From Zootoca vivipara (taxonomy: Eukaryota): DNA of 64,000 nucleotides. Positions 15,017-64,000 of the stretch are shown here, piece by piece. How positions within the stretch are numbered: the first letter of the stretch is position 1; every line of letters begins with the position of its first letter. The stretch covers positions 79,050,001 through 79,114,000 of the forward strand of contig NC_083276.1 in NCBI RefSeq assembly GCF_963506605.1, given 5' to 3'. Both the position numbers and the translations under genes were made by a program. The notes below the pieces were generated by a model. That model made no database searches. It saw only the letters and a program-made list of their open reading frames with translations, and was not told where the DNA came from.

Positions 15017-17807
15017 TTACTCGTCGCTGCTGCATTTGTCAATCATCTTTTTCTGAAATGAAATGAAACAAATGTAAGTACAGGCTGCTAAAGGAAATGA
15101 GGAAGGTTGGGACTAGCTGGTTCTTGGCGAGCATTACTCAGCAGCCTGCTTCCTGAACAGTAGAAGATCATGCCATGGTGAAAATGGCTGAAAGTCAATA
15201 AAAGGCAACTTTGCCTTCTATCTGTGCCTTGATTCACTTGGCTCAGCCATCAGAATAATTGGGCAGCTTTAGGGTTGGAAAAGATGGGTCTTCCTTACGA
15301 TGACACAGGCCTGCTGCATGCATATTAAACTAGAGTTATTACTGTGTGACCTGAATTAGTCTCTGATATATGGAGAAGGCTTTGGTAATATAGACGGCAA
15401 GACAAAGAATTTAGATCCTTTTTAGATCATCAGATATTAACTTGTGGCCTTTGATAGGCATAGTAAAATAATGTTTTTAAATAGCAGACTGCAAATAAAG
15501 TTTGGTGGGATGAAAGACAAGGTATAATAAATACCCAAACACAGGCAAGAAAAAAAACGGCAAAATAGATACTTACCACAAGATCATATAACCCTTCTTT
15601 TTCCTCTTCTGTAAATTTGTCCTGGGTGCAACTTTGCACCTGCTGTGCATTGTCTATCCCATACTTTGCACGAGGTATATATTTTTTAAGCTCCTCTTTT
15701 AAGTCATCCGGTGTTCCAGAAAGGAATGCAGTCACTGAATTCTGGACAGAAGGACACAGCTCAGAATAAACTGGGGGGGGGGGGACAAAATAAAAACAAA
15801 AACAAAAAGTGAATTCATACATGTTTTATTTAAACTCTTTATTGTCATCTTCGAAAAAAGAAATAATCACCTGATAACTGGATGGAAATCATATGACTCA
15901 GCTGAGAGAGCCCAGCTCAGATCCAGCTTGGATGCCCATTTCTCTGCAAGAAAGCTCCATGGGAGAAGAACTTTCTTGTGCTGACACCACATGAGGATGG
16001 TTTAAATGTTCTTTCATTACCATGTTTGTACGTCAGGGACACACAGCCCTGACCAGAGGATGCTATGTTTCCTGGGCTCTGTAGATGCAGGGAAAAAAAT
16101 ACTATACTTCCTCTGTGTAGCACTAACCAAAACTGGCCTTTCCACAGCTGAGTAATTTCTAAATTGGAGGCCATAAATATGACATCTTAACTTACCATAA
16201 AATGCACATGTCACTATGTAGTGAGATTGGGGTACCCCCGTGTGTCCAAACTCAGGCTCATGGAACGCAAAGCATTGTGGGATAAGTAAAACTGTAGCCT
16301 CCTAGGCAAAAGGGTTTTGTTTTTTTTAAAGTGAATTCTTTTCTACACCTCTACACCTAACTGCTTTCTGATTCTGCAGGCAGGGAGATGCTTATCTGAT
16401 TTACAATACAAAAGTGTGAACCCGGAGCAGCTGTGATTTAAGATGTGTATTGGGGCTGCTCCCAAGGTTATCAAGGGCTTTGTGTAGCCTGAGAATTTTG
16501 GGGAGTATTTTGCCTCAAGGTTCTTTGAGTATAAACAGAGTTTCAGCTGTGTCAGTTTTGACAATCATACGATATATGTTTGACATCTGCTATTGGTAAT
16601 TTTGTAATTAGGATCTAACTCTGATAGGCTTAATAATGGAACCCCTCCTAAAGAAAAACGGTCTGGGGAGTGAGATGCAAATCGCTCTCAGCCAGGGGTC
16701 CCCAAACTAAGGCCCGGGGGCTGGATGCGGCCCAATCGCCTTCTAAATCCGGCCCACGGACGGTCCGGGAATGAGCATGTTTTTACATGAGTAGAATGTA
16801 TCCTTTTATTTAAAATGCATCTCTGGGTTATTTGTGGGGCATAGGAATTCGTTCTTTTTTTAAAAGAAAATAAAAAATACAGTCCAGCCCACCCCGACAA
16901 GGTCTGAGAGACAGTGGACCGGCTCCCTGCTGAAAAAGTTTGCTGACCCCTGCTCTCAGCCATTGTGCTATTAGCCATCCTGTTTCAGTCATGTTGCTTA
17001 GAGAATCCTGTTGTAGCCCACTTAAACTCACTGACTATCATCTTCAGTGATTTTTAGGGTGCCCAGGTATAAAAACAGGACAGGGCTCCTGCACCTTTTA
17101 ACAGCTGTGTAAAAAGAGATTTCTGCAGCTGCACCTCCCATGCCAAACTATACAGTATATGGCATCTGGTTGCCATAACATTTTTTTAGAGCTCAGTACT
17201 ATCACTAAGGATGTAAGAAAGCACCGTTTCTGTCAGAAACTATATTACTTGTCTCACTGTCCAATGTGACAAATTTTACATAATTATGTAATTACATTGC
17301 CAATGCACTATTCCACCTCATTCGTTTCCAGACTGAAAGTGACAACGGCTAATACCGATTGCATTCAATCAACTGATTTTCATTCCAAACGTGGAACGAA
17401 TAAGTGAACAGTGGCGATTTCTGCTTCCATTTCCGTCAGAATTCTCCAATATCCCTAACTGTGGCCTGTGCAATCTTAAAGAAAGCATACTGGGAAGAAA
17501 GCCCCATTGGGCACAACAGGACTTACTTTTGAGTAAGCCTGCTTTGTATTGTGCTTTATTTGAGTGGAGGCCATGCAGAGCTGGTCCAGGAAGTCTCATT
17601 GCCTAAAATGCCCAGCTCTTGGAGTTCATTTCACTGAGATTCTACTGTATTTCATTTACAAACATTATCTCTGGTAATGTTATGCTGTACTACTTAATGT
17701 TTGCTTCTTGAGTCTATTGAAACCAAGAGCCAGATGTCTCAGTAGTGATGCTTACCTGAAGAGCAGTAGCATACTAGGGCGATGAGCAGGATGAGTGTCA
17801 GCTTCAT
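15017..17807 (-). CDS. Secretoglobin-like protein, cluster gene 3 (93 aa); exons 17807-17756, 15770-15577, 15052-15017
   Basis: TATA ~17885-17894; exons 52/194/36 nt; ATTAAA ~14807-14812 on -. Translation: MKLTLILLIALVCYCSS-VYSELCPSVQNSVTAFLSGTPDDLKEELKKYIPRAKYGIDNAQQVQSCTQDKFTEEEKEGLYDLV-KKMIDKCSSDE*. Confidence 0.89.
16693..16952. mobile_element. hAT MITE in intron 1 of gene 3
   Basis: CAGGGGTCCCCAAACT...AGTTTGCTGACCCCTG; TSD CTCTCAGC. Confidence 0.88.
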
Positions 17808-27366: not shown

Positions 27367-27503
27367 CAGGCATCCCCAAACTAAGGCCCTCCAGATGTTT
27401 TGGCCTACAACTCCCATGATTCCTAGCTAACAGGACCAGTGGTCAAGGATGATGGGAAATTGTAGTCCAAAACATCTGGAGGGCCGCAGTTTGGGAATGC
27501 CTG
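27367..27503. mobile_element. 137-bp hAT MITE (same family) upstream of gene 4
   Basis: Same TIRs; perfect TSD TCCTACTG. Confidence 0.9.
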
Positions 27504-40461: not shown

Positions 40462-43400
40462 TCAGTTTTGCAGGAGTTGCGGCTTTTCACATTCATGCAG
40501 GATATTTAACTGGAACAAAGATTGCCAATAGAAAGGTATGCTGTAATTCACATGGAGAATAGGGTAAAATCTATGGAGAATAGGGTATAATCATATCTAT
40601 CACTGATATGAAGACAGGAGTGCTTGGCGTGCTCTGGTCCACGGGGTCACAAAGAGTTGGACACGACTAAACGACTAAACAACAACAAATCTCTGATATG
40701 GTATGTCGTATCTAGGCTGTCCTAATCCAGCCACTGTTAGCCAACAGGTTAGCCACTGTGGTGCCTGTAAAAGGTCTCAGTAAATATCCCCTCAAAAATC
40801 TATATTGCACGAGAAAATGTTAGCTTTCCCTGCACAGTTCCTGTTTGCATTCACTCAGCCTCTCCAAGATGGACCATGCATGTCCCTTTAAACATGCTAC
40901 ATTTCAGGATTAGACACACACCCTCCCATCTGTGCTGAACAGGGGAGAGGTGCAAAGAGCTTCTCTCTGTGAGTGAGTGCAGCAGGGGCGAATATAGGTG
41001 AACCCCCCCCCGGCCTCCACTGAAGGAGATGGCTGATGGGGAGGAGGTCTGCACCATTTTGTGTCCTGTCTCTTTTTCTGCTCTTCTACATGTGGCAGCC
41101 ATTTTATAAGTAGAACCCTGTGCTTTCTCAAAATTCTGAATGTGTCCTCTAGCCCAGAAAGGTTGATAACTCCTGCCTTAATCTCAGAGATGGAATGTGC
41201 TTCTTTAATGTGGGAGCTTTAGCCCTTCACTACCAATCCTCATGGAGTGCCATGGAGTGCAAGAAGATCAAACCTATCCATTCTGAAGGAAATCAGCCCT
41301 GAGTGCTCACTGGAAGGACAGATCCTGAAGCTGAGGCTCCAATACTTTGGCCACCTCATGAGAAGAGAAGACTCCCTGGAAAAGACCCTGATGTTGGGAA
41401 AGATGGAGGGCACAAGGAGAAGGGGACGACAGAGGACAAGATGGTTGGACAGTGTTCTCGAAGCTACGAACATGAGTCTGACCAAACTGCGGGAGACAGT
41501 GGAAGACAGGAGTGCCTGGCGTGCTCTGGTCCATGGGGTCATGAAGAGTCGGACATGACTAAACGACTAAACAGCAAGAACCAATCCCCAGGAGCTGGAA
41601 ACCCTCATTGGTTGTAAAATATTCTTTCCTAGCAGAGATACACTTATGGTGCCAATTCTCTAATTTTTAGGCAACAGATGAAGACAGAACTTTTAATGGG
41701 TTGCTTTAATTCTTGGTGTTTCTCTGCTTTTATTACAACCTCTTTGCTATCTAATTAAACTTTCTCTGTGTGGTTCTTTTTTATTATCTGACTTTAGTAT
41801 TTATTATTGAATGAAAAATAAACAATACAATTAACTCATACAGGCACCCAGCCAGCTTATGCTGGAGTCATGATGTGATAAACAGCCATATCTGAACAAG
41901 GCCTCAGAGCCTACCGTACTTCCACTGAAACATATTGTGTCTGTGGTGATGTGAGGCGATGTGTCATAGCAGCTTTAGACCTTCAAGTCCTCAAATGATG
42001 AATATGCATTTGTGAATTTGCCCCAAACTGTGATTTAAGTGTTGGGTATATGTGTGTGAAAATAATTACCAGCACTTGGCTTTTTGCCATTCGAACGGAT
42101 TCCGGAAGCCCGACTGCGCATTGTTTAAGCACAGAAGCAGCTTCCTTCATTTCTTCGGTGGTGGCAAAGCGATCGATTGCTTTCATGTAGTCATCATGCG
42201 AGGCGAAAAGGTAGTTTGTGAGGGTATCAACCAGAAGAGGGCACGTTTTGATAGCAGTAGCTGGAAAGGAATGGAAAATGCTTGAAAATTAGATTTTGAG
42301 TGAGGAAATCTGAATTGTGATAAAAGTTAGCAGGCTTTGAACCAGTTAAGCATCACATGGCAAAACGCAGGTAGTGTAGCTTTGACTAGGGTATTCAAAT
42401 TAAGCAGGAACTATGAGTGCATGATTATATATCAAAAACCAAATATATAATAGATAAAAATATTTTTTAATTAATCTGTTACTTTTGTGAATCTGTCAGC
42501 TTTCCACTTTCTCACCTGCTAACTGACTCCCTAGGGTAGTTGCTATGTACTGAGCTGAATCCTAGAACAATAGGATTCAGAATCAGCGGGAGCTACCCAA
42601 TCCAACTCCAGGTGGAAGTGAATCCGCAACCTGATTGGCCTGCTGGAGCAGCCAATCAGGCGGCTGGCAGAAGTGAATCTGCTACCTGATTGGCCTGTAG
42701 GAGCAGCCAATCAGGCTGCAGGCAGAAGTCAATCCACAATATAATTGGCCCACAGGTGTAGCCCTGAAGTAGCCAATCACGCAAGGCCCATTGTGTAAAT
42801 AATGTATATAAGCAGATGGTTTTGGGAAAAGAGCCATTCGTCTTCTCTTCTTCTCCTTGATGAATATGAGCTGAATAAAGAGCATGAAATTCACTCTCGA
42901 CTCCGAGTATATTTCACTGGCGACGAAGGTGGGATCCTGCTGAGCTGACCGCCACCACGCACTGCACCGCAGCACCGCCACCTGCTGCACCGCTGCATCG
43001 CACCGTGCATCCAGGCTTCAGCTCCAGGACCCAAGGAACCCAGAATGGCAACCGACAGCAGCTTCTCGCCATTCAAACCAGCATCAGGAGACTGGGAAGG
43101 GTACGCCGCCCGTTTCAACTTCCTCCTGCAAGCGAAAGAAGTCACCAACGATGCCATGAAGAGGGCGACATTCTTCAGCGTCTGTGGAGAGGAGACGTTT
43201 GAAATTGCCCGGGCTCTCCTTGCACCTAGAGATGTCGCTACCGTCTCTTACAAAACAATAATGGAACGGCTGAAGGAGCACTTTTCACCACAGCCCTCGG
43301 TGGTAGCTTGCCGAAATGCCTTCTACGCAAAGCGGCAAGCCCCGGGGGAAACCATAACTGGGTTTGTGACCTCCCTCCGCCAAGCCGCCCGGTTATGCAA

Positions 43401-46400
43401 CTTCTCAGAGTTGGAGAACATGCTTCGTGACCGCCTCGTCGGTGGCCTGAGGGACGAGATGTTGCAACGACGCCTCTACGCCAAAAAAGACCTCACGTTC
43501 CAGATTGCTCTGGAGGAAGCCCTGGCAACCGAAGCCGCCGAGAGGTCAACGCAAGAGGCACGACCGGCCCCGCCATCCCAACCGAGGGTCTACCACGAAG
43601 ACCTCACCGACGAATCCGAATCTGACAGGGAGGAAGTACACCGTGTACAGCGGCGCACTCAAGCAGCACACACACCACAGCAGCCTCGACGAGAAGGAGG
43701 GAACTGTGCAAGCTGCGGGGAGAACCACGAGAGGAGGACCTGTCGTTTCCGCAACGCAGAGTGCAGGCAGTGCAGAAAATTGGGACACATCGCCCGGGTG
43801 TGTCGGGCTCGACTCACCCGTCGACAAGCATCAGATGACCGACCCAGGAGCCCCAGGGCACACGGCACCATGCACCAAGGCAACTCGACGGAGATCACGG
43901 GCTACCAGGTATTCCAGTTGCCCCATCCCAGCACAGAGAAAATTTATATAGAGGTACAGATAGAGGGAGCCCCATGCCGCATGGAGCTGGACACGGGTTC
44001 AACTCTATCCATAATCTCGGCCCGAACATTAAGGGAACTGTGCCCTAATGGGGGTCCCAAACTAAGGCCGGCCCCATTCACCCTCCGGGACTTCCAGAAA
44101 CGTAAGGTCCCTACAATGGGGGTGGGGACCTTCAGGGTGCAATATCGAGGGCGAAAGCAACAATTGGACTTGCTGGTAGTTAAGGGCCCCTACGTTAGCT
44201 TACTGGGACTGGCATGGTTTGGACCTCTGGGGCTAGCCGTTACCGGGGTGAACCGCACTAGCTTACAAGTGGACGTGGACGCCATATGCAAAGAGTTTCC
44301 AGGGGTTTTCGATGGGGCATTGGGACGATATACAGGACCCCCCATTGCCCTACAGCTAGACCCCGTTGTACGACCCATCAGGCACAAGGCCCGCCGGGTC
44401 CCGTTCGCCCTGAAACCCCGCATAGACGAGGAATTGGACCGGCTCGTGGAGCAAGGAGTGCTGGAGCCGGTGCCCAACGCCCCCTGGGAAACTCCAATTG
44501 TCACACCCGTCAAGCCTAACGGTTCGGTCCGCATCTGTGCAGACTACAAATGCACCATAAACAAGGCTCTCACGGCCCATGCATACCCAGTGCCAGTGGT
44601 CAGCCATGTCCTCGCCACCCTGGCTGGGTCAAAAATCTTTGGCAAACTGGACTTGGCCCAAGCGTATCAACAGTTGCCTGTGGACGAAGCCACAGCAGAG
44701 GCTCAGACGATTGTGACGCACAGAGGGGCATTCAGAGTAAAGCGGCTGCAATTTGGCGTTAGCGTGGCACCAGGCATATTCCAGAATCTAATGGACTCTC
44801 TCCTTAAAGGGATTCCTGGCGTCACCCCCTTCTTCGATGATGTACTGATCGCCGGGCCCACACCAGAGGAATTTGAGGACCGCCTCCGCTCCGTCCTGCA
44901 CCGTTTCCAGACGGCGGGCCTCAAGGTGAAGCGGGAAAAGTGTTTACTGGGAGTGCCGCAGGTGGACTTTCTGGGATTTAAGGTGGACGCAGAAGGGGTC
45001 CATCCAACTGGTGACAAGGTACGGGCCATTTGTGAGGCCCCAGCGCCCAAGAGCAAGCCCGAACTTCAGTCATTCTTGGGACTATTGAACTTTTACCATG
45101 CCTTCCTTCCCCATAAGGCAGCGGTAGCGGAGCCCCTACACAGACTCCTAGATAAAAGGGCCCCTTGGGTGTGGGGCCAGCGACAAAGGGCCGCATTCCA
45201 GGCAGTCAAGGACTTGCTCGTCTCGAACTCGGTCTTGGCACACTTCGACGAGAGGCTGCCAGTGGTGCTGGCATGCGACGCCTCTCCCTATGGCATCGGC
45301 GCTGTCCTGGGACACCAACTCCCGGATGGAAGAGAGGTGCCGGTGGCATACTTCTCCCAGACGCTTGCTGCAGCCGAACGAAACTACTCACAGATTGACA
45401 AGGAGGGTCTGGCAATCGTGAAGGGCGTAAAAAAATTCCATGATTTCTTGTACGGGCGGCCCTTTACCATAGTGACTGACCACAAGCCGTTGCTTGGCCT
45501 GTTTGCCCCCGAGAAGCAGACCCCCCAAGTGTTGTCTCCACGTGTCCTCAGGTGGTCAATTTTCCTTGCCGGCTACCAGTATGCACTAATCCACCGCCCT
45601 GGGAAGGCGATGGGCCACGCAGACGCACTCAGCAGGCTACCACTACCAGAAACAGGCCCCGACCCAGCGCCTGCGCAAGAGGTTATGACCCTGGAGCTGC
45701 TTCCCGACCGACCCATTCAGGCACAAGAAGTTGCGCACCATTCCACAAAAGATAGGGTCATCTCCCGGGTCCTGGACTGGGTGTGGCGAGGATGGCCCAG
45801 CAGCAGCCCCGGGCCAGAATTCGCTGGCTACACAAACCGCAAACATGAACTGTCGGCCCACAAGGGGTGCCTGTTATGGGGAAGCAGGGTTGTTGTTCCC
45901 CAGCCCCTCCGCAAAAGGGTCCTCACAGCCCTACACGAGACACACCCAGGGGTAGTGAGGATGAAGGCCCTTGCCAGGAGTTATGTGTGGTGGCCGGGGA
46001 TTGACAGAGAGATAGAGGCCTGGGTCCAACACTGCCAGACCTGCCAAGAATCCCGCCCGGATCCCCCAAGGGCCCCAGTCCAGCCCTGGGAGTCCGCCCG
46101 ACATCCATGGTCACGCTTGCACGTGGACTTCGCTGGCCCCTTCCAGGGAAAAACATTCTTCATAGTGGTGGATTCCTACACCAAATGGCTGGAGGTCGCA
46201 CTGGTACCGTCCACTTCTACGGCGGCAGCCATCCGGGTACTACGTAAGCTGTTTGCAACCCACGGGCTCCCTGACACCCTCGTCTCGGACAATGGAACCG
46301 CATTCACGTCAGAGGAGTTCCAGACCTTCACAGCGCAGAACGCCATCCGCCACATCCGCTCAGCACCATTCCACCCTGCCACCAATGGCCAAGCGGAGCG

Positions 46401-49305
46401 CATGGTGCGGACCACCAAGGACAGCCTCCGCCGCATAACACAAGGGGACTGGGAATACCGCCTTGCCGCATTTCTTCTAGCACAGCACAGCACCCCAAGC
46501 ACAACGACGGGCCGGAGCCCAGCTGAACTACTCATGGGCCGGCGCCTTGCAACTAGACTGGACCGACTTCACCCCGACAGAGCTCAGGATGAGGTAGTGG
46601 TGGGGAATGGCAGGAACCCCCGGACATTTGTGGCCCAGGACCCAGTGTATGCAAAGAATTTTGGGGCAGGCCCAGCATGGGTACCCGCCACAGTCACCAA
46701 GGTGACCGGTCCCGTGTCGTACGAGGTACTAACGGAAGGGGGGCAATGTTGGCGCCGCCACTGCGACCAGCTACGGCGACGATTCCCAGGAGGAACCCGG
46801 GAGGAGAGCGGGACAGAGGGGTCCCAAGGGGACAGCAGGGCAGTGAGGCCTGTAGAGCGAGAGGGGTGGGCAGGGGAAGCAGAAGCAGTAGGCACAGAGG
46901 GGCACCCTGAGGCTGGAAGGACACCGGAACCAGAGTCACAACCTAGTGGTTCAGTGGCGCCAGACCAGACAGCCCCGGCACAGCCAGCAGCCTTGGAACA
47001 CGAGCCAGAACCAGAACCCCTGACCAAGGAACACCCCAGGCCACAACGCACACGGAGGCGGCCAGCAGACCTTGGGGACTACGAATGCAACTTCCCGGGC
47101 AGGACTGGAACTTAGAGGGGAGGGGTGCTATGTACTGAGCTGAATCCTAGAACAATAGGATTCAGAATCAGCGGGAGCTACCCAATCCAACTCCAGGTGG
47201 AAGTGAATCCGCAACCTGATTGGCCTGCTGGAGCAGCCAATCAGGCGGCTGGCAGAAGTGAATCTGCTACCTGATTGGCCTGTAGGAGCAGCCAATCAGG
47301 CTGCAGGCAGAAGTCAATCCACAATATAATTGGCCCACAGGTGTAGCCCTGAAGTAGCCAATCACGCAAGGCCCATTGTGTAAATAATGTATATAAGCAG
47401 ATGGTTTTGGGAAAAGAGCCATTCGTCTTCTCTTCTTCTCCTTGATGAATATGAGCTGAATAAAGAGCATGAAATTCACTCTCGACTCCGAGTATATTTC
47501 AGTAGTATATGAAGCAGCAGGCCAGATTCCATGACCTTGAATGACAAGGATTTTAGTATTTCAGTTATGTCCATAAATTGGAACTTGGGGTGGGAGGCCG
47601 GGTGGCCAGGGGGCACATTTGATCTTCTACTCCAGAAATGGATCCAGAAATAGATCCAGGCACCAATCTTCTTAACCTCCTCACCATACCACCAAAATCC
47701 TCTTGAGACTCTCACACAGAATTCACCTACTCTTTTTAGGGTGTGCAAACACGGCATGATTATGTACATTCAGTGCTGGATACAGTTGCTAACAGGTGCC
47801 ATGTCATCCCTGTCCCAAATTATTTGTTGATCTAAAACACATTCTGCTGGAACAGTTATAATCTGTTCTGCACCGATAATGCACTTCTTAAGTGCTTGCT
47901 GCCTATGTGCGCCTATGGACATTGCAGGGCTGTGCCACTTGCCCTCATCATATTTAACTTGTCTTTGAATGAAACAGGCAAATTAAGAAGCAGTGCAGTC
48001 ATTTAGCCTCCTCTGTATACTAGAATATATCCACAGCATATCAACACCCCGGTTTCCATCCCCTCTTTTGAAAGGCTATTATGTGTATATATGGTCTGTA
48101 GTGATGTATGGAAGTGAGAGCTGGACCATAAAGAAGGCTGATCGCCGAAGAATTGATGCTTTTGAATTATGGTGCTGGAGGAGACTCTTGAGAGTCCCAT
48201 GGACTGCAAGAACATCAAACCTATCCATTCTGAAGGAAATCAGCCCTGAGTGCTCACTGGAAGGATAGATCGTGAAGCTGAGGCTACAATACTTTGGCCA
48301 CCTCATGAGAAGAGAAGACTCCCTGGAAAAGACCCTGATGCTGGGAAAGATGGAGGGCACAAGGAGAAGGGGACGGCAGAGGATGAGATGGTTGGACAGT
48401 GTTCTCGAAGCTACGAACATGAGTTTGACCAAACTGCGGGAGGCAGTGGAAGACAGGAGTGCCTGGCGTGCTCTGGTCCATGGGGTTATGAAGAGTCGGA
48501 CACGACTAAACGACTAAACAACAACAAATGGTCTGTTCCAACACTTGAGTGAAATAGAGAATGTGAAATAGAGCAATGGCACACAAGTTTGAAAACAAGC
48601 CCACCTGTGTGTACAGACAACAGGGGTAGTAGCTGCAGCTTTATATGATGTTATTGCATCAAGGCATGTACAATTGCAAACTGCTGTGTACAAAAAACCC
48701 AACCCCTGTGTGGTTTCAAAGACTACATGTGTACGCATCCTTATTCTTTCCCAACCCTATATTTTGGGGTCACCCTTGGGATAGGCGACTTCTAGCTTTC
48801 TCTCTCTCAGGTAGAATCACTGTAATAATAACAAAAGACTGGAGCTATTTACACCTCTGCAAGACACTCCCTCTGTTTTGACCAAGTTGTCTTCTAAATA
48901 ACTCCAGCACTAAGCAGCTGGTGCAGGGTAGCCTTTGCGTATAAACATAACAGTCTTACCCAGAATACCTATGGGGTGAAATTCCCCCCCCAACACGTCC
49001 AGAGAAAACTGTATGAGCAAAAATGAGCACATAAGCCCAGATCCATTTACTCACAACACCGGGTGCTAATAAGCAGTTGTGAATTGTGAGTGGGGCAGAG
49101 CCATCCTCCTAACATTGGTGTCACTGCATCCTAGCTGGGCAAGGCTAGGATGAGGTAGAGTAGGGAGCGTCAAGGTCAGAGCCGCATGGGTATGCCAATG
49201 GAAACTCTGGATTGGCTGTGCTGGTGCACCCATCCTGCCACAGAGGTATCAGGGCAAGGTGCAACAATGCTGACTTTGGAGGGTGGCTCCATCCAACCAC
49301 ATGAG

Positions 49306-53800: not shown

Positions 53801-55419
53801 AAGTTTGGCCTCACTGAGGGGCAGTATTTCAATATGAGTAGGAAAATGAGAGTACCCCTAAACATTTTTTTCGGGGGGGGGAAGCACTGGCTGTAGGAAT
53901 GGAACCACCTGGCATGAACAAAGACATTGGATTCTTATCTCTTTATGCATGATCAAGCTTTCTTTAGCCTCAGCCCTTGCTTTCCCCCCGCAGGACCTAT
54001 TGCAGTCATCAGCAGTCGTTAACAGCCATCAACAGGTTTACCACTCCTACAGCCCATCACCCATTCCCATCACCCCCACCCCACCCTCTCACTGTATATA
54101 AGAGTCTGGTTGCTTCTGTTTCAAGTGTATCTGACGAAGTGTGCATGCACATGAAAGCTCATACCAAAATAAAAACTTAGTTGGTCTTTAAGGTGCTACT
54201 GAAGGAATTTTTTTATTTTGTAGGAATGGGTTACTTCAGTTACTCTCACACAGACTGGGCAGGTGTGGGTTCCAGTAATGAGAAAGATATAACATTTCTA
54301 GATATCCTAAATGACCAGTGGTTCCCAATTAGCTAAGTTCTGCCCCCCCCTGCATTTTTCAAAAGCCAAACCATGGACCCCTTTTGAGAATTTTGATATC
54401 TCTGTGGTAGCTTTTGTTATGTGGATGGTGCCACAGACCCCTTGGGTGGGTTACGCAATTGGGAACCACTGCCCTAGACAATGGGCCATGAAACTGGCCA
54501 GAGGGGCAATGACTCTGGGCCCCAGTGGGGTAGTACCCAGGACCTGATGCAAGACGTAAGTGTAACTGAACCAATTACTGGACAATTGCTGAGGAAGTTG
54601 AAAGGCAAAGTGGGTCAAATCTCTCCAGAATACTTGGGAGCAGTGCTTTTCTTCTAGAAGAAAAGTTGCAGGTACTCATCATGTACAGGTAGTTGTTAGA
54701 GTAAGTCCCACACTTTTAAACAGGCCCTGGACCTCTGTGCTGCCCTGACAGTACCACTGTCAGATGCCCCATCTTGAGTGAGTGGGACTTACAGATATGG
54801 TGCAGATACGGTGAAAGTAGGCACTGAGCACCTCAGTCATCTTAATGTTATTTATAGTACCTAGCTCACTTTCCCATTGAGTTATGAGCCGCCCTACAGT
54901 GTTCTACAATGTTCTCATTATGTTTCGTATACTTAACAGACATGGCTCTTTATTTTAATGTTTCCATTGTTTAATTATACTTTGGTTTCAGCAGGGGGTT
55001 GTTGCTTGTCTGGTTTTTGTCTCTGTGTTGCGGACTTGTGGGCAGCAGGTTGGAGGCCACTGGGGAGTGAGGAAGGGGGTGGGTGGGAAGTATAAATGCA
55101 GTAAAGAAAGAAAGAAAGAAAATTAGGATTGAAATGGGCAGTCCAGGAGCACCTCTTGATTAATGCCAATTGTCCAAATTATAGAGGAACCAACCGCAAG
55201 CCATGCCAGAGAGGGAGGTTCATCCATGGCAGGGACACACTCCCAGGTCGCACCCGCTCTGCCTTTCAAGTTGGCAGACACGGGCCTGTGCAGCACAGCA
55301 GGATGCAGCGAGCTCCCCAGACCCCACTGGGGAACATTGCCAGGACTTTTACCTCATAAATCCTGGCTTTCCCCTGCCTGAACCTCTTCACAGCCCATGG
55401 AAGGCTACGAGGAGCGACC

Positions 55420-56080: not shown

Positions 56081-56366
56081 ATGGGAAACAAAAGCAGCCG
56101 AATCAGTGACCTGCTCTTACTTGTGCTCGGTGATCTTTCTCAGGAAGACTTCAAAAGATTTAAAGACAAGCTCTCCTATTCAGACCTTGAAGGAAAGCGT
56201 TCCATAATTCCCCGAAGTCGGCTAGAGAACGCGGACAGGGTAGATACCAAGAATCTCCTGCTCAAGTGTTATGGTGGAGATGATGCAATAGATGTAACCA
56301 TACAAGTGCTCTCGGAGATTAATCAAAAACAGTCTGCTGCTAAACTCAGAAAAGAGAAAGAGAAAG
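56081..56366 (+). CDS. NLRP pyrin (PYD) domain exon
   Basis: MGNKSSRISDLLLLVLGDLSQEDFKRFKDKL...IPRSRLENADRVDTKNLLLKCYGGDDAIDVTIQVLSEINQKQSAAKL is a pyrin-domain signature; acceptor at 56063, phase-1 donor AG|GTAAG at 56367. Confidence 0.92.
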
Positions 56367-56857: not shown

Positions 56858-56899
56858 GTTTGGAGTCTGGTCAGAAAGCACTGGAGATATCATCAAAAG
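56858..56899 (+). CDS. Possible 42-nt NLRP linker exon (GLESGQKALEISSK)
   Basis: Pyrimidine tract plus CAG acceptor, AAG|GTAC donor, symmetrical phase 1, no stop. Confidence 0.5.
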
Positions 56900-57958: not shown

Positions 57959-59601
57959 ATTACAGGATTAAATACAGAGAATATGTATGGGAAGAATATC
58001 AAGTAATTCAAGACAAAAATGCCCTCCTTGGTCAATGGGTGAACCTAAACAGAAGGTACACCCATCTCTTGATCATTCAGAAACATTGCCTGCTGGAAGA
58101 GAAGCAGCATGAAATCATGTCCACAGGAAGGAAACATGCCAACATGATGGGCAAGCAAGCCAGTCCAGGTAGTGTTGCAGCTTTATTTGATGCTGATGAA
58201 AACAGAGTGAACCCTAGAACTGTTGTGCTCCAAGGGCCTGCTGGGATTGGAAAAACAATGACCGCGAGGAAGATTATGTTGGACTGGGCAGTTGGCAAAC
58301 TCTACCAAGGCAAGTTTGATTATGCATTCTACATAAACTGCAGAGAAATTAACTTGATGACTGAGCAGCATAGTCTGATAGATTTAATCTTTTGGAACTG
58401 TCCTGAGAGAAATGCTCCCCTGGAAGATATTTTTTCAAATCCAGAGAGGCTTCTGTTCATAATCGACGGTCTTGATGAACTGAAATTTCCCTTAGAATCC
58501 AATGGGGAACACCTGTGTTTTGATCCTAGTCAAAAGAAGCCGGTGAAAGTTGTACTGAGAAGTTTAGTCAAGAAAAGCATTCTTCCCAAATCATATTTAA
58601 TCATCACTACAAGGCCAATTGCTCTGGAGCAACTGCAGAAGTATCTGAAGTATCCCCGCCACATAGAGATCCTGGGGTTTTCTGAGAAGGACAGGGAAGA
58701 GTATTTCCACAAGTATTTTGGGAACGAGAGGCAAGGGGTACAAGCTTTTGGGGTTGTGAAAGCAAATGAGATGCTCTTCACCATGTGCTTTGTCGCCATT
58801 GTGTGTTGGATCATCTGCACTGTGATGAAGCAACAGATGGATAGAGGAGAAGATCTTGTGCAGACTTCAAAAACAACTACCTGTGTATACATGTTTTATT
58901 TAACTAGCTTACTCGGAGATCACAGTCCAGTGTTGGAAAGAGGTAAACAGAAACATTTCCAAAACCTTTGTCTCTTAGCCAGAGAAGGAGTCTTGACAAG
59001 GAAAATACTCTTTGAGGATGATGACCTCCAAAAACATGGCTTAAATGAGGCTGACATCCGGTCACTCTTCCTTCACAAGCAACTTTTCCAGCAAGATATT
59101 GATTGCCAATCTGCCTACAGCTTCATCCACTTAAGTTTCCAAGAGTTTTTTGCAGCCTTGTCCTACGTGCTAGAGGAAATACCAGAAATTGTCAATAAAT
59201 CAGATTGTTGTTATGAAGACGTGAGAAAGTTGCTAAAAGATTTTGGAGAGGGTGGAAATGAGTACTTAGTGTTGACAGTCCGCTTTCTGTTTGGTCTTTT
59301 AAATGAAAAAATGAGGAAAACCATAGAGAAAAGTTTAGGCTGTAAAATTTGTTCAGAAATAAAACAAGTGCTTTTGGACTGGATCGAAGCTGAGGTGGCA
59401 TCAAAGAGCTGTCAAAAGAAATCTGAGATATTCTGTTGCTTATATGAGATTCAAGAAGAAGAGTTTGTGGGAAGAGCAATGGATTGTATCCCCGAGATTA
59501 AGCTGTATGATAACTGCCTAGGGAACGCATTCAACTCTCTGGTTATTTCATTTTGCCTGAGACACTGTCGTAAAGGACAGTCCTTTCATCTAGGACAGTG
59601 A
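57959..59601 (+). CDS. NLRP FISNA-NACHT-HD1/WHD/HD2 exon, ending at a transposon-supplied TGA
   Basis: DYRIKYREYV (FISNA), Walker A GPAGIGKT, Walker B LLFIIDGLDEL, sensor ITTR, VCWIIC, FIHLSFQEFFAAL, FLFGLLN, CLYE; phase-1 acceptor TTAG ending 57958. Confidence 0.93.
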
Positions 59602-60327
59602 TTCCCAACAGGTGGTCCGGGGACCCCCAGGGGTCCGCGAGCTATGCCAGAGGGGTCCGCAAGATGCTATTAGAATAAAAAATATATTAAATATATTTCG
59701 TATGATAACAGATTTTTTGTTTTGGTCGCTTCCTGCATGAGCAGAGTCTAGCGCAAAACTAGAATTAGATAGAGGCAGTAGTTCTGCTGTACGCCGTTAG
59801 GTGGCGCTTTACAAACACTACTGTTTTGCAAAGAGGCAGCGCGCGCATTCTACTAACGCTCACCTCCCCAACATGCTTTGCGTGCGTCGGCTTCATTTGT
59901 GCGCTACTGCGCAGGTACCCTGTCTTCTCCATTCCCCTCCCTCCTCCCTGGCGCCCGCTGCCTCTTTGCAAAACAGTAGTGTTTGTAAACAAAGCGTTGT
60001 TTTCCGCGGAAGCTACAGTTCGCGTAGTTAAAAATGGACCGTTGGTTAAAAAGTGGTTCGTTACAACGACAAAGGCCTACAGATGAAGAGGAAGATAATG
60101 CATTTGATGTTCAAGCAAGTAAGTCAGTGACTCTCGAACCGATCTTGTCAGTGTCCATTGAACCTAAATTGTCGGCGTCCCTTGAACCTAACCCTTCCAA
60201 GATCAGTGTTAAGCTTACTGGAAAAATTAGATTAGGAATTAGATTTTGGATTAGGAATTAATGGGGGTCCTTGTCACAATAGCGGCTCGATGAGGGGTCC
60301 TCGAGAAAATTTTGTTGGGAACCCCTG
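59596..60327 (+). mobile_element. Non-autonomous hAT (Charlie-like) DNA transposon inside the NACHT exon
   Basis: TIRs CAGTGATTCCCAACA / TGTTGGGAACCCCTG; 8-bp TSD ATCTAGGA (59588-59595, 60328-60335); transposase-like start MDRWLKSGS at 60034. Confidence 0.92.
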
Positions 60328-61615
60328 ATCTAGGATATCTACTTTTTTTGTCAAGGTATGTAGACCCATCAGCAGACACTGTTCAGATCAGTTCAGGGTT
60401 TTTGTTTTTAGCTAATGTGCAAACCAAAACTTTGGTCCATTTAATTTTGCCCTTTCCTGGGATATTCTGACCGCTATGGCCCATGCAACAGCAACCTCAT
60501 AGTTAGATTACTATAATGTGCTTTATATGGGGATACCTTTGGGCTTGGTTTTAAGGCTGCAACTAGTGCAGAAGGCAATGGTTAGGGTACTGAGCGGGAT
60601 ATATATCTATACACACATAGCGCCCATGTCAAAGGAACTGCACTAGCTTCCTTTTAGGTGCTAAGCCATGTTCAAAGTTCTGTTATAAACAAATATAGCC
60701 CTGAACAACTTGAGACCAGGTTGTCATGCCATGTCTTTCCTGCAGTGGCACCAGTCCTCTGGCATACACTCCCCAGTGCAATCTCAGAGGCATCAACTGA
60801 GATACATTTTTAAGAGGCATCTAAAACAAATGTGTTTGTTCAGGAATTTCCTGAGTGTTCATTTTTAGATTGATTCTGGGTTTTTATTGACAAAATGTAT
60901 TTTAATTTTATTTATATTCTAGGTCTCACAATTGGTTGGGTTTTGTTTTGTATACCAAGTAGTCTATAAAATGATTAAATATATAGGTGTGGTGTTATAT
61001 AAAAAAGAAAAGGTGTAATTCTCTGAAAGCCAAACAATGTTCCAGATTTAAGATTCTATGTTGTATGTTCAAGGGTACTAGAGCATGGGTAGCAGTGAAT
61101 CTAGGGCATAGATTTTCCAAAGAGCCCATTTTGTTAAGCCAGGGCACATAAATTTTAGTTGCTAAAGCTCAAACTGAATGCAATAAACACGTTTTTGCAA
61201 ACATGTATATTGTACATGTTAATTCATGGCCATCGCCCCCTTTTGAGCATATACTTGGTGGCAAACCTAGCTTTGCTGGTGCATACTTCATGAAAGAGCC
61301 CTAGTTTTGGTTATCAAGGGGAAGTTTTGTTCAAGGTGATATTCACTTTTCATATTCTAAAATGTGCCTTTCTGTTGCTTGCGGCTATGCCAACCTCTTT
61401 CAGAAGTGATTTCACCCAGAATGAGCACATCATATGTCAACATTTATCCTCTAGGGCTAAAAATAACTCTTGATCAACAATCTTCTCTCTGCGCCCTGGG
61501 GGCGTTATGTAAAACACATCCCACAACTTCACAGGTCATGATGCAATGTTGTCTACTGCAGCTGTATGGTCCAATTGCATAGCATATCCAACACACGTTT
61601 TTCTATTTTGTTCAG

Positions 61616-61846
61616 CTTATATTTTAATGGAAGAGTGGATGAAAACCTCCCTCTCCTATTTGAAGGACTGAAGGATCCAAGGTGTAATGCAGGCATCCCC
61701 AAACTTCGGCCCTCCAGATGTTTTGGACTACAATTCCCATCTTCCCCGACCACTGGTCCTGTTAGCTAGGGATCATGGGAGTTGTAGGCCAAAACATCTG
61801 GAGGGCCGCAGTTTGGGGATGCCTGGTGTAATGTAAGAGAGATCTG
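61616..61846 (+). pseudogene. NLRP LRR exon (87 nt natively) interrupted by a MITE
   Basis: SLYFNGRVDENLPLLFEGLKDPRCN[MITE]VREI; phase-2 acceptor and donor (TG|GTATGT at 61847); in-frame TAG at 61767-61769 inside the MITE. Confidence 0.8.
61690..61825. mobile_element. 136-bp palindromic hAT MITE inside the LRR exon
   Basis: CAGGCATCCCCAAACT...AGTTTGGGGATGCCTG; TSD GTGTAATG on both sides. Confidence 0.93.
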
Positions 61847-63122: not shown

Positions 63123-63191
63123 GTCTAAAAGCTTATCCCAAAGTTGCAAAGAGCTGGGAAAGGGAAGACTGACTCCCTATTTCTTCCTCAG

Positions 63192-63362
63192 TTTTAAGCG
63201 ATGTAATCTCAGAGCCGCTTCCTTTGAGATTCTTACCTCTGTCCTCACCACGAATCAACACATCAGAGAATTCAACTTACAGCAAAGTGACCTAGGAGAA
63301 GTGGGAGTGATCAAACTCTGTCAAGCACTCAAGCATCCCAACTGCAAACTGCAGATACTGAG
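63192..63362 (+). CDS. NLRP LRR exon (171 nt)
   Basis: FKRCNLRAASFEILTSVLTTNQHIREFNLQQSDLGEVGVIKLCQALKHPNCKLQIL; canonical 171-nt phase-2 RI-type LRR exon. Confidence 0.92.
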
Positions 63363-63880: not shown

Positions 63881-64000
63881 ATTACGTTGCTGTAACCTCA
63901 GCCCCAAGTCATGTGAGAAACTAGCCTCTATCGTTCCTAAAAACCAGAACCTGAGAATGCTTTATTTGGACTTTAACAATATAGGGGATGCTGGACTAAT
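63881..64000 (+). CDS. NLRP LRR exon (partial, runs off window)
   Basis: LRCCNLSPKSCEKLASIVPKNQNLRMLYLDFNNIGDAGL after a TTTCAG acceptor. Confidence 0.9.

Follow-up and report, generated by a model that had tools for sequence, protein, structure and literature searches.

Engineered and natural receptors that lack leucine-rich repeats (LRRs) have been described. For human NLRP3, the available part of the source reports that a protein consisting of residues 1-688 is fully active and that one consisting of residues 1-667 is inactive, and that part mentions no construct ending between 667 and 688 (PMC6281599). Mammalian NLRP10 comprises a pyrin domain (PYD) and a NACHT module without LRRs and, according to the accessible text, has a lysine-rich tail of 72-112 aa that oligomerisation requires (PMC13458767). 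In IL18R1-Short, as outlined in the accessible section of PMC13232192, an intronic, ancient element supplies a polyA signal able to truncate an immune receptor, and the full-length form remains. In reptiles, the number of NLRP3-like copies is variable, according to the accessible part of PMC11258412. Here we describe an NLRP gene of Zootoca vivipara that is interrupted by two transposable elements and has probably become a young, lineage-specific pseudogene through MITE insertion. No report of this locus was found among the papers listed in searches of the non-subscription literature.

The gene is located on the + strand of the window, by which we refer to the entire 64-kb stretch of DNA analyzed. 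Its PYD exon is followed by a linker exon of 42 nt, a large exon for FISNA-NACHT-WH-HD2, one exon of 87 nt and four that encode LRRs, the last two of which lie beyond the window end. Coding exon 1 (56081..56366, ATG at 56081) encodes the pyrin domain (Pfam PYRIN, E 1.9e-21; 92% in tblastn with the orthologue P0001) and ends in a GT donor, and exon 2 (56858..56899) has AG/GT ends and a frame that agrees with the orthologues. The 5' part of exon 3 (57959..59595), delimited by Pfam and homologue alignment, contains FISNA, NACHT, WH, a complete HD2 according to Pfam, and the start of the transition LRR. Its last 20 nt (60336..60355), identified by orthologue match and frame, are stranded behind a 732-bp element. 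Exon 4 (phase 2-2) is likewise divided, into a 5' part at 61616..61689 (93% in tblastn with P0001) and a 3' part at 61834..61846, for which splice-site and frame reading place a GT donor at the end. LRR exon 5 (63192..63362; open, AG/GT intact) and exon 6 (63881..64000, reaching 64051 past the window end) were recognized by orthologue match and splice sites, and two more open LRR exons follow on the same strand at G000:C1:79115423-79115596 and 79117466-79117652 (orthologue match). The architecture PYD-FISNA-NACHT-WH-HD2-LRR was confirmed by Pfam on the window exons and on the orthologue P0121. Outside the two insertions, the 924-codon host frame contains neither stops nor frameshifts and every splice site is GT-AG; this preservation speaks against a pseudogene.

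By its sequence, the host gene is an NLRP3/NLRP12-like NLRP, and its NACHT exon shares approximately 47% identity with human NLRP3. A tree built from 33 NACHT regions placed the gene within a squamate-only clade (support 100/100) separate from the pair formed by mammalian NLRP3 and NLRP12, which argues against one-to-one orthology with mammalian NLRP3. The tree contained no NLRP10 sequence, and none of the best 120 homologue matches was named NLRP10. The closest other matches in the same genome are at most 44% identical to the gene. Further NLRP genes were observed in this genome. A paralogue with an open NACHT exon and several LRR exons begins at L027 (G000:C1 near 78.92 Mb), approximately 190 kb upstream of the window gene, and another of the same description is found at L033-L034 (G000:C11 near 61.36 Mb). 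At L030:3379-10165 (G000:C2 near 56.03 Mb) there is a natural short-LRR NLRP of about 787 aa, with PYD-NACHT and two short LRR-like exons, which is conserved across lizards, snakes and tuatara and, as an example of an NLRP with few LRRs, would be more convincing than the window gene. Within the window, an exon match to the uteroglobin/secretoglobin family (15430-15825, - strand; Pfam E 9.5e-10) was noted, as was an LTR retroelement (42541-47425, + strand) situated approximately 9 kb before the start of the NLRP gene. The latter has a pair of identical direct repeats of 300 nt and a single open frame of 1388 codons, in which RT, RNase H and integrase domains were recognized, and is likely a very recent insertion.

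The element in exon 3 (59596..60327) measures 732 bp, is bounded by imperfect inverted repeats and lies between a left (59588..59595) and a right (60328..60335) copy of the target-site duplication (TSD) ATCTAGGA, an 8-mer with 3 occurrences within the 64-kb window. A search of the animal's own genome (1.44 Gb) returned 1,664 first-look candidates, and the 40 that were scored, the window copy among them, were near-full-length at 96-100%. Of 19 other copies retrieved, 18 had a perfect 8-bp TSD. Compared with the majority of these 19 copies, the window copy shows 10 differences, of which 8 are private (8/732, 1.1%). Its longest stop-free frame spans only 105 codons, and the element is therefore non-autonomous. 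We take it to be of the hAT type, an assignment that rests on the TSD length, the ends and a TCTAG-like target preference; it combines an 8-bp TSD and short terminal inverted repeats with dispersed near-identical copies and the absence of a transposase frame. An assembly artefact or a chance repeat was ruled out by the orderly ends, the duplication and the family copies. The insertion point is situated 20 nt before the native donor of exon 3. When the element is removed, the exon continues for these 20 nt to AAG|GTATGT in phase 2, in agreement with the orthologues' ...SFHLGYLLFLS. The sequence-only reading had proposed both a hAT insertion with TSD just before the native donor and the restoration of that donor in phase 2 upon its removal, and our data bear out the two proposals. 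A short element (approximately 156 bp) whose terminal repeats are those of the 732-bp family is found at 54316-54471, where it precedes the start codon by 1.6 kb.

A premature TGA (59599..59601, + strand) in the left terminal repeat limits the predicted product to 656 aa. This stop had been ascribed to the terminal repeat, and it does lie in the NACHT frame; however, it results from a private G>A change, since base 59601 is G in all 19 other copies, which read TGG. With the family-type end, the frame would run 25 codons further to a TAG, and the insertion is thus predicted to truncate the protein with or without the private change. The AATAAA reported inside the element was also found, at 59674..59679 (+ strand), where it forms a putative polyA hexamer followed by a T-rich stretch. 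It is present in 19/19 other copies and is therefore an inherited feature of the element family, not one selected at this locus. A strong donor-like site, CAA|GTAAGT, occurs inside the element at 60119, but it is downstream of the stop and so could not restore the frame. Stops located far before an exon junction usually lead to nonsense-mediated decay. The TGA is 754 nt upstream of the native junction, so that decay would be expected unless the mRNA ends inside the element.

Exon 4 contains a second insertion, a MITE of 136 bp (61690..61825) with an in-frame TAG, recognized by its TSD, GTGTAATG (61682-61689 and 61826-61833), and by family matches. The sequence-only reading had missed this element, as well as the private nature of the TGA and the Pro389Ala change considered below. 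On its own, the 136-bp MITE would limit the protein to 712 aa, but exon 4 could be skipped in frame, so that this insertion alone need not kill the gene, a point against a pseudogene. A pattern search found 15,694 exact-end matches of the family in the genome, equivalent to approximately 1 copy per 92 kb, and a neutral coding sequence of 2.8 kb would thus have a chance of only ~3% of receiving an insertion. This low figure and the presence of two independent insertions in consecutive coding exons both favor a pseudogene. The 136-bp copy shows no private change with respect to 15 copies and may therefore be very young; the difference in private changes between the two elements (0/136 versus 8/732) has P=0.23 and does not decide their age order. 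Two further elements with ends resembling those of the 136-bp MITE are located at 27367 and 62987, the latter in the intron that immediately precedes LRR exon 5.

In related lacertids the 732-bp insertion site is empty: four orthologues (924-935 aa), which share 95-96% identity with the host frame, continue into the LRRs, and the model of Podarcis muralis (P0005) crosses the empty site into the same intron. On this comparison, the empty site is the ancestral state. Overall, the orthologues measure 878-935 aa and have LRRs. In run X19, which comes from a related species, a contig (RNA type guessed) joins 59035-59595 to 63191-63362 with 106 letters in between, which corresponds to 20 + 87 host bases minus a shared G; this length, by which alone the fit was judged, is consistent with both sites being empty and with the predicted splicing. 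Orthologue-grade matches of the host gene were found in lacertids, two geckos and skinks only (6 clusters), versus 31 clusters across lepidosaurs, from snakes to tuatara, for a control paralogue on chromosome 2. This narrow distribution suggests that the gene is dispensable, in line with a pseudogene. The clade of the gene may have been lost repeatedly outside lacertids, geckos and skinks, and annotation gaps are an alternative cause of the pattern.

The PYD and NACHT frames had been described as otherwise intact. Both are indeed open in the window (Pfam, frame reading), but the NACHT module carries an alanine at codon 389, an invariant proline of the nucleotide site that is conserved in 120/120 homologues. 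Residue 389 aligns to P412 of NLRP3, and the P412A variant of NLRP3 has a five-fold lower ATP turnover according to the available part of PMC9633759, so that Pro389Ala supports the pseudogene. The second database record of the gene, P0002, differs at 2 NACHT sites and retains Pro389, which indicates that Pro389Ala is not in every allele and counts against gene loss; 16 of the 18 lineage-specific NACHT changes are common to both records. Such changes were defined at the protein level as sites where only this lineage departs from the four lacertid orthologues, and amounted to 24, namely, 18/545 in NACHT, 3/110 in PYD and linker, and 3/269 in the LRRs. The four other lacertid orthologues have 1-4 NACHT changes each (2 in the sister orthologue), and 11 of the 18 changed sites are also conserved in the skink and gecko outgroups. 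The relative-rate test against the closest orthologue gave p=0.0005-0.007 with the three other lacertids as outgroups, but was not significant with a skink or gecko outgroup (p=0.23 and 0.40), which weighs against a pseudogene. The chromosome-2 paralogue served as rate control, as the chromosome-1 paralogue had no homologues at E<=1e-200. In NACHT, the contrast between the host gene (18 v 2) and the control over a comparable pair (14 v 10) was significant (Fisher p=0.039) and supports the pseudogene, whereas that for the whole gene (24 v 6 versus 21 v 14) was not (p=0.11) and stands on the opposite side. In these comparisons, P0121 and P0177 were assigned to the same sister lineage by their tree position. 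This lineage is thus somewhat faster in general, with a modest gene-specific excess on top. From the 8 private changes in 732 bp, a neutral gene would be expected to have accumulated ~23 (10-45) amino-acid changes, and the 24 observed agree with a pseudogene; the 3 changes in the LRR exons, below the neutral expectation of ~6.6 (2.9-13), do not.

A sample of ~6% of three raw RNA runs from the same species was compared with the locus; gene coverage was very low and most reads were MITE reads from other loci. At base 59601, 143/143 reads had the family G, and they therefore derive from other element copies. Two runs had almost nothing on the gene. In the third, a few sense-strand reads were seen on the PYD and NACHT exons (NACHT depth 0.4-2.7), which argue against a pseudogene; depth was similar on intron stretches and nil in the bins over exons 5-6. 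No gene-derived splice joint was seen in this ~6% sample, whose depth is too low to test splicing or polyadenylation. Word shares in the same-species runs were 0.55-0.90, a measure that does not separate filled from empty sites.

A hAT-type MITE interrupts the NACHT exon within its last codons, and we consider it probable, on the evidence above, that the gene is a lineage-specific pseudogene that has been decaying since. The early stop would be present in any transcript that uses the native donor, and such transcripts would be subject to nonsense-mediated decay, whereas any escape through the AATAAA of the element would yield a PYD-NACHT protein of 656 aa whose nucleotide site is predicted to be weakened. 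Relaxed selection may then have permitted the second MITE and the excess of amino-acid changes, in whichever order the two insertions occurred. The sequence-only reading had left the choice between a null allele and a short receptor: the former gives the best fit, and the latter fares poorly in view of the NACHT changes and the P412A equivalent.

A working sensor without LRRs, in which the mRNA ends at the AATAAA of the element, escapes decay and encodes a 656-aa protein that functions in the manner of miniNLRP3 or as a decoy, seems improbable to us. The cut aligns to residue 682 of human NLRP3, between the inactive 1-667 and the active 1-688 (PMC6281599, available part), and close to the end of the solved NACHT construct 7alv (550 residues); since 7alv covers nearly the same span, folding of the short protein is plausible. 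HD2 is complete, the hexamer looks canonical with its T-rich stretch downstream, the private G>A shortens the 25-codon element-derived tail to one residue, and the second insertion lies beyond the stop, as it should if the LRR part alone had been released. On the other hand, the hexamer is shared with 19/19 family copies, Pro389Ala is present, a basic tail of the NLRP10 type is absent, and, at very low gene coverage, 0/143 RNA reads at 59601 had the window base. Furthermore, for a selected receptor without LRRs a conserved NACHT and a decaying LRR part would be predicted, and the reverse was observed (18/545 versus 3/269; small numbers, at the protein level only). In its boldest form, this account has a DNA transposon creating a natural miniNLRP, with a point change in the terminal repeat as a clean stop, the AATAAA ending the mRNA, a 656-aa protein that still nucleates ASC or serves as a decoy with dominant-negative effect, and the fast NACHT change reflecting re-tuning instead of decay; we judge this unlikely. 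Should the short form prove to be expressed and functional, it would constitute a natural experiment on the minimal NLRP C-terminus, between NLRP3 1-667 and 1-688.

Similarly doubtful is a splice bypass, in which a donor at 59505 would be joined in frame to exon 5, resulting in a PYD-NACHT-LRR protein minus ~66 residues with its LRR exons kept under selection. Both database models of the gene (P0125 and P0002) skirt the two insertions through this donor, the phases agree (phase 2), and the LRR exons and splice sites are well preserved. However, the donor, GCT|GTATGA, fits only 4/9 consensus positions, and the models use different acceptors and have odd, differing, non-homologous ends, so that they probably represent prediction workarounds; their avoidance of the insertions by such means is itself in line with a pseudogene. 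In addition, the part lost would overlap the stretch needed for NLRP3 assembly (665-686 in mouse; PMC6281599, accessible text), and no such joint was present among the RNA reads, at a depth too low to test it. Least probable is that the assembled animal carries the insertions as rare or haplotype-specific alleles and that the species mostly keeps the full-length gene: the 136-bp copy without private change, possibly very young, would fit, but the 8 private changes (1.1%) of the 732-bp copy point to an old insertion, and P0002 also skips the region and has 16/18 NACHT changes in common.

If the gene is a pseudogene, Zootoca vivipara has recently lost one of its few NLRP sensors, and this loss is masked by database models whose splicing circumvents the two insertions and which are catalogued as protein. 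Such a result is useful for reptile immunogenomics and ordinary in kind. With respect to the described systems, the predicted product resembles mammalian NLRP10 in having PYD and NACHT and no LRR (PMC13458767, available text). It differs in that only 43 residues with 2 lysines follow HD2, that the gene keeps five LRR-region exons, and that its orthologues are full-length. The open downstream LRR exons, the full-length orthologues and the absence of a basic tail rule out membership of NLRP10, and the NLRP10-like character that had been proposed was not confirmed. The product is similar to the engineered miniNLRP3 (mouse 1-686, human 1-688), with which it shares PYD-FISNA-NACHT-HD2, the start of the transition LRR and the lack of an LRR domain; it is ~6 residues shorter, natural, from a different paralogue and contains the P412A equivalent (PMC6281599, available part). 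IL18R1-Short, as described in the accessible section of PMC13232192, is the nearest functional precedent for a short receptor made by a transposable element; like that element, the one in the lizard could supply a polyA signal, but it is exonic, young, blocks the full-length form and offers a candidate signal only. The closest match in kind is a unitary pseudogene made by a DNA transposon, a familiar type with which the locus shares an exonic MITE with TSD, a premature stop, further lesions and intact orthologues in relatives. Here there are two disabling insertions, intact orthologues and no close intact paralogue (<=44% identity). Unlike typical unitary pseudogenes, the gene is free of frameshifts and nonsense changes apart from the two insertions, and its LRR exons are little decayed.
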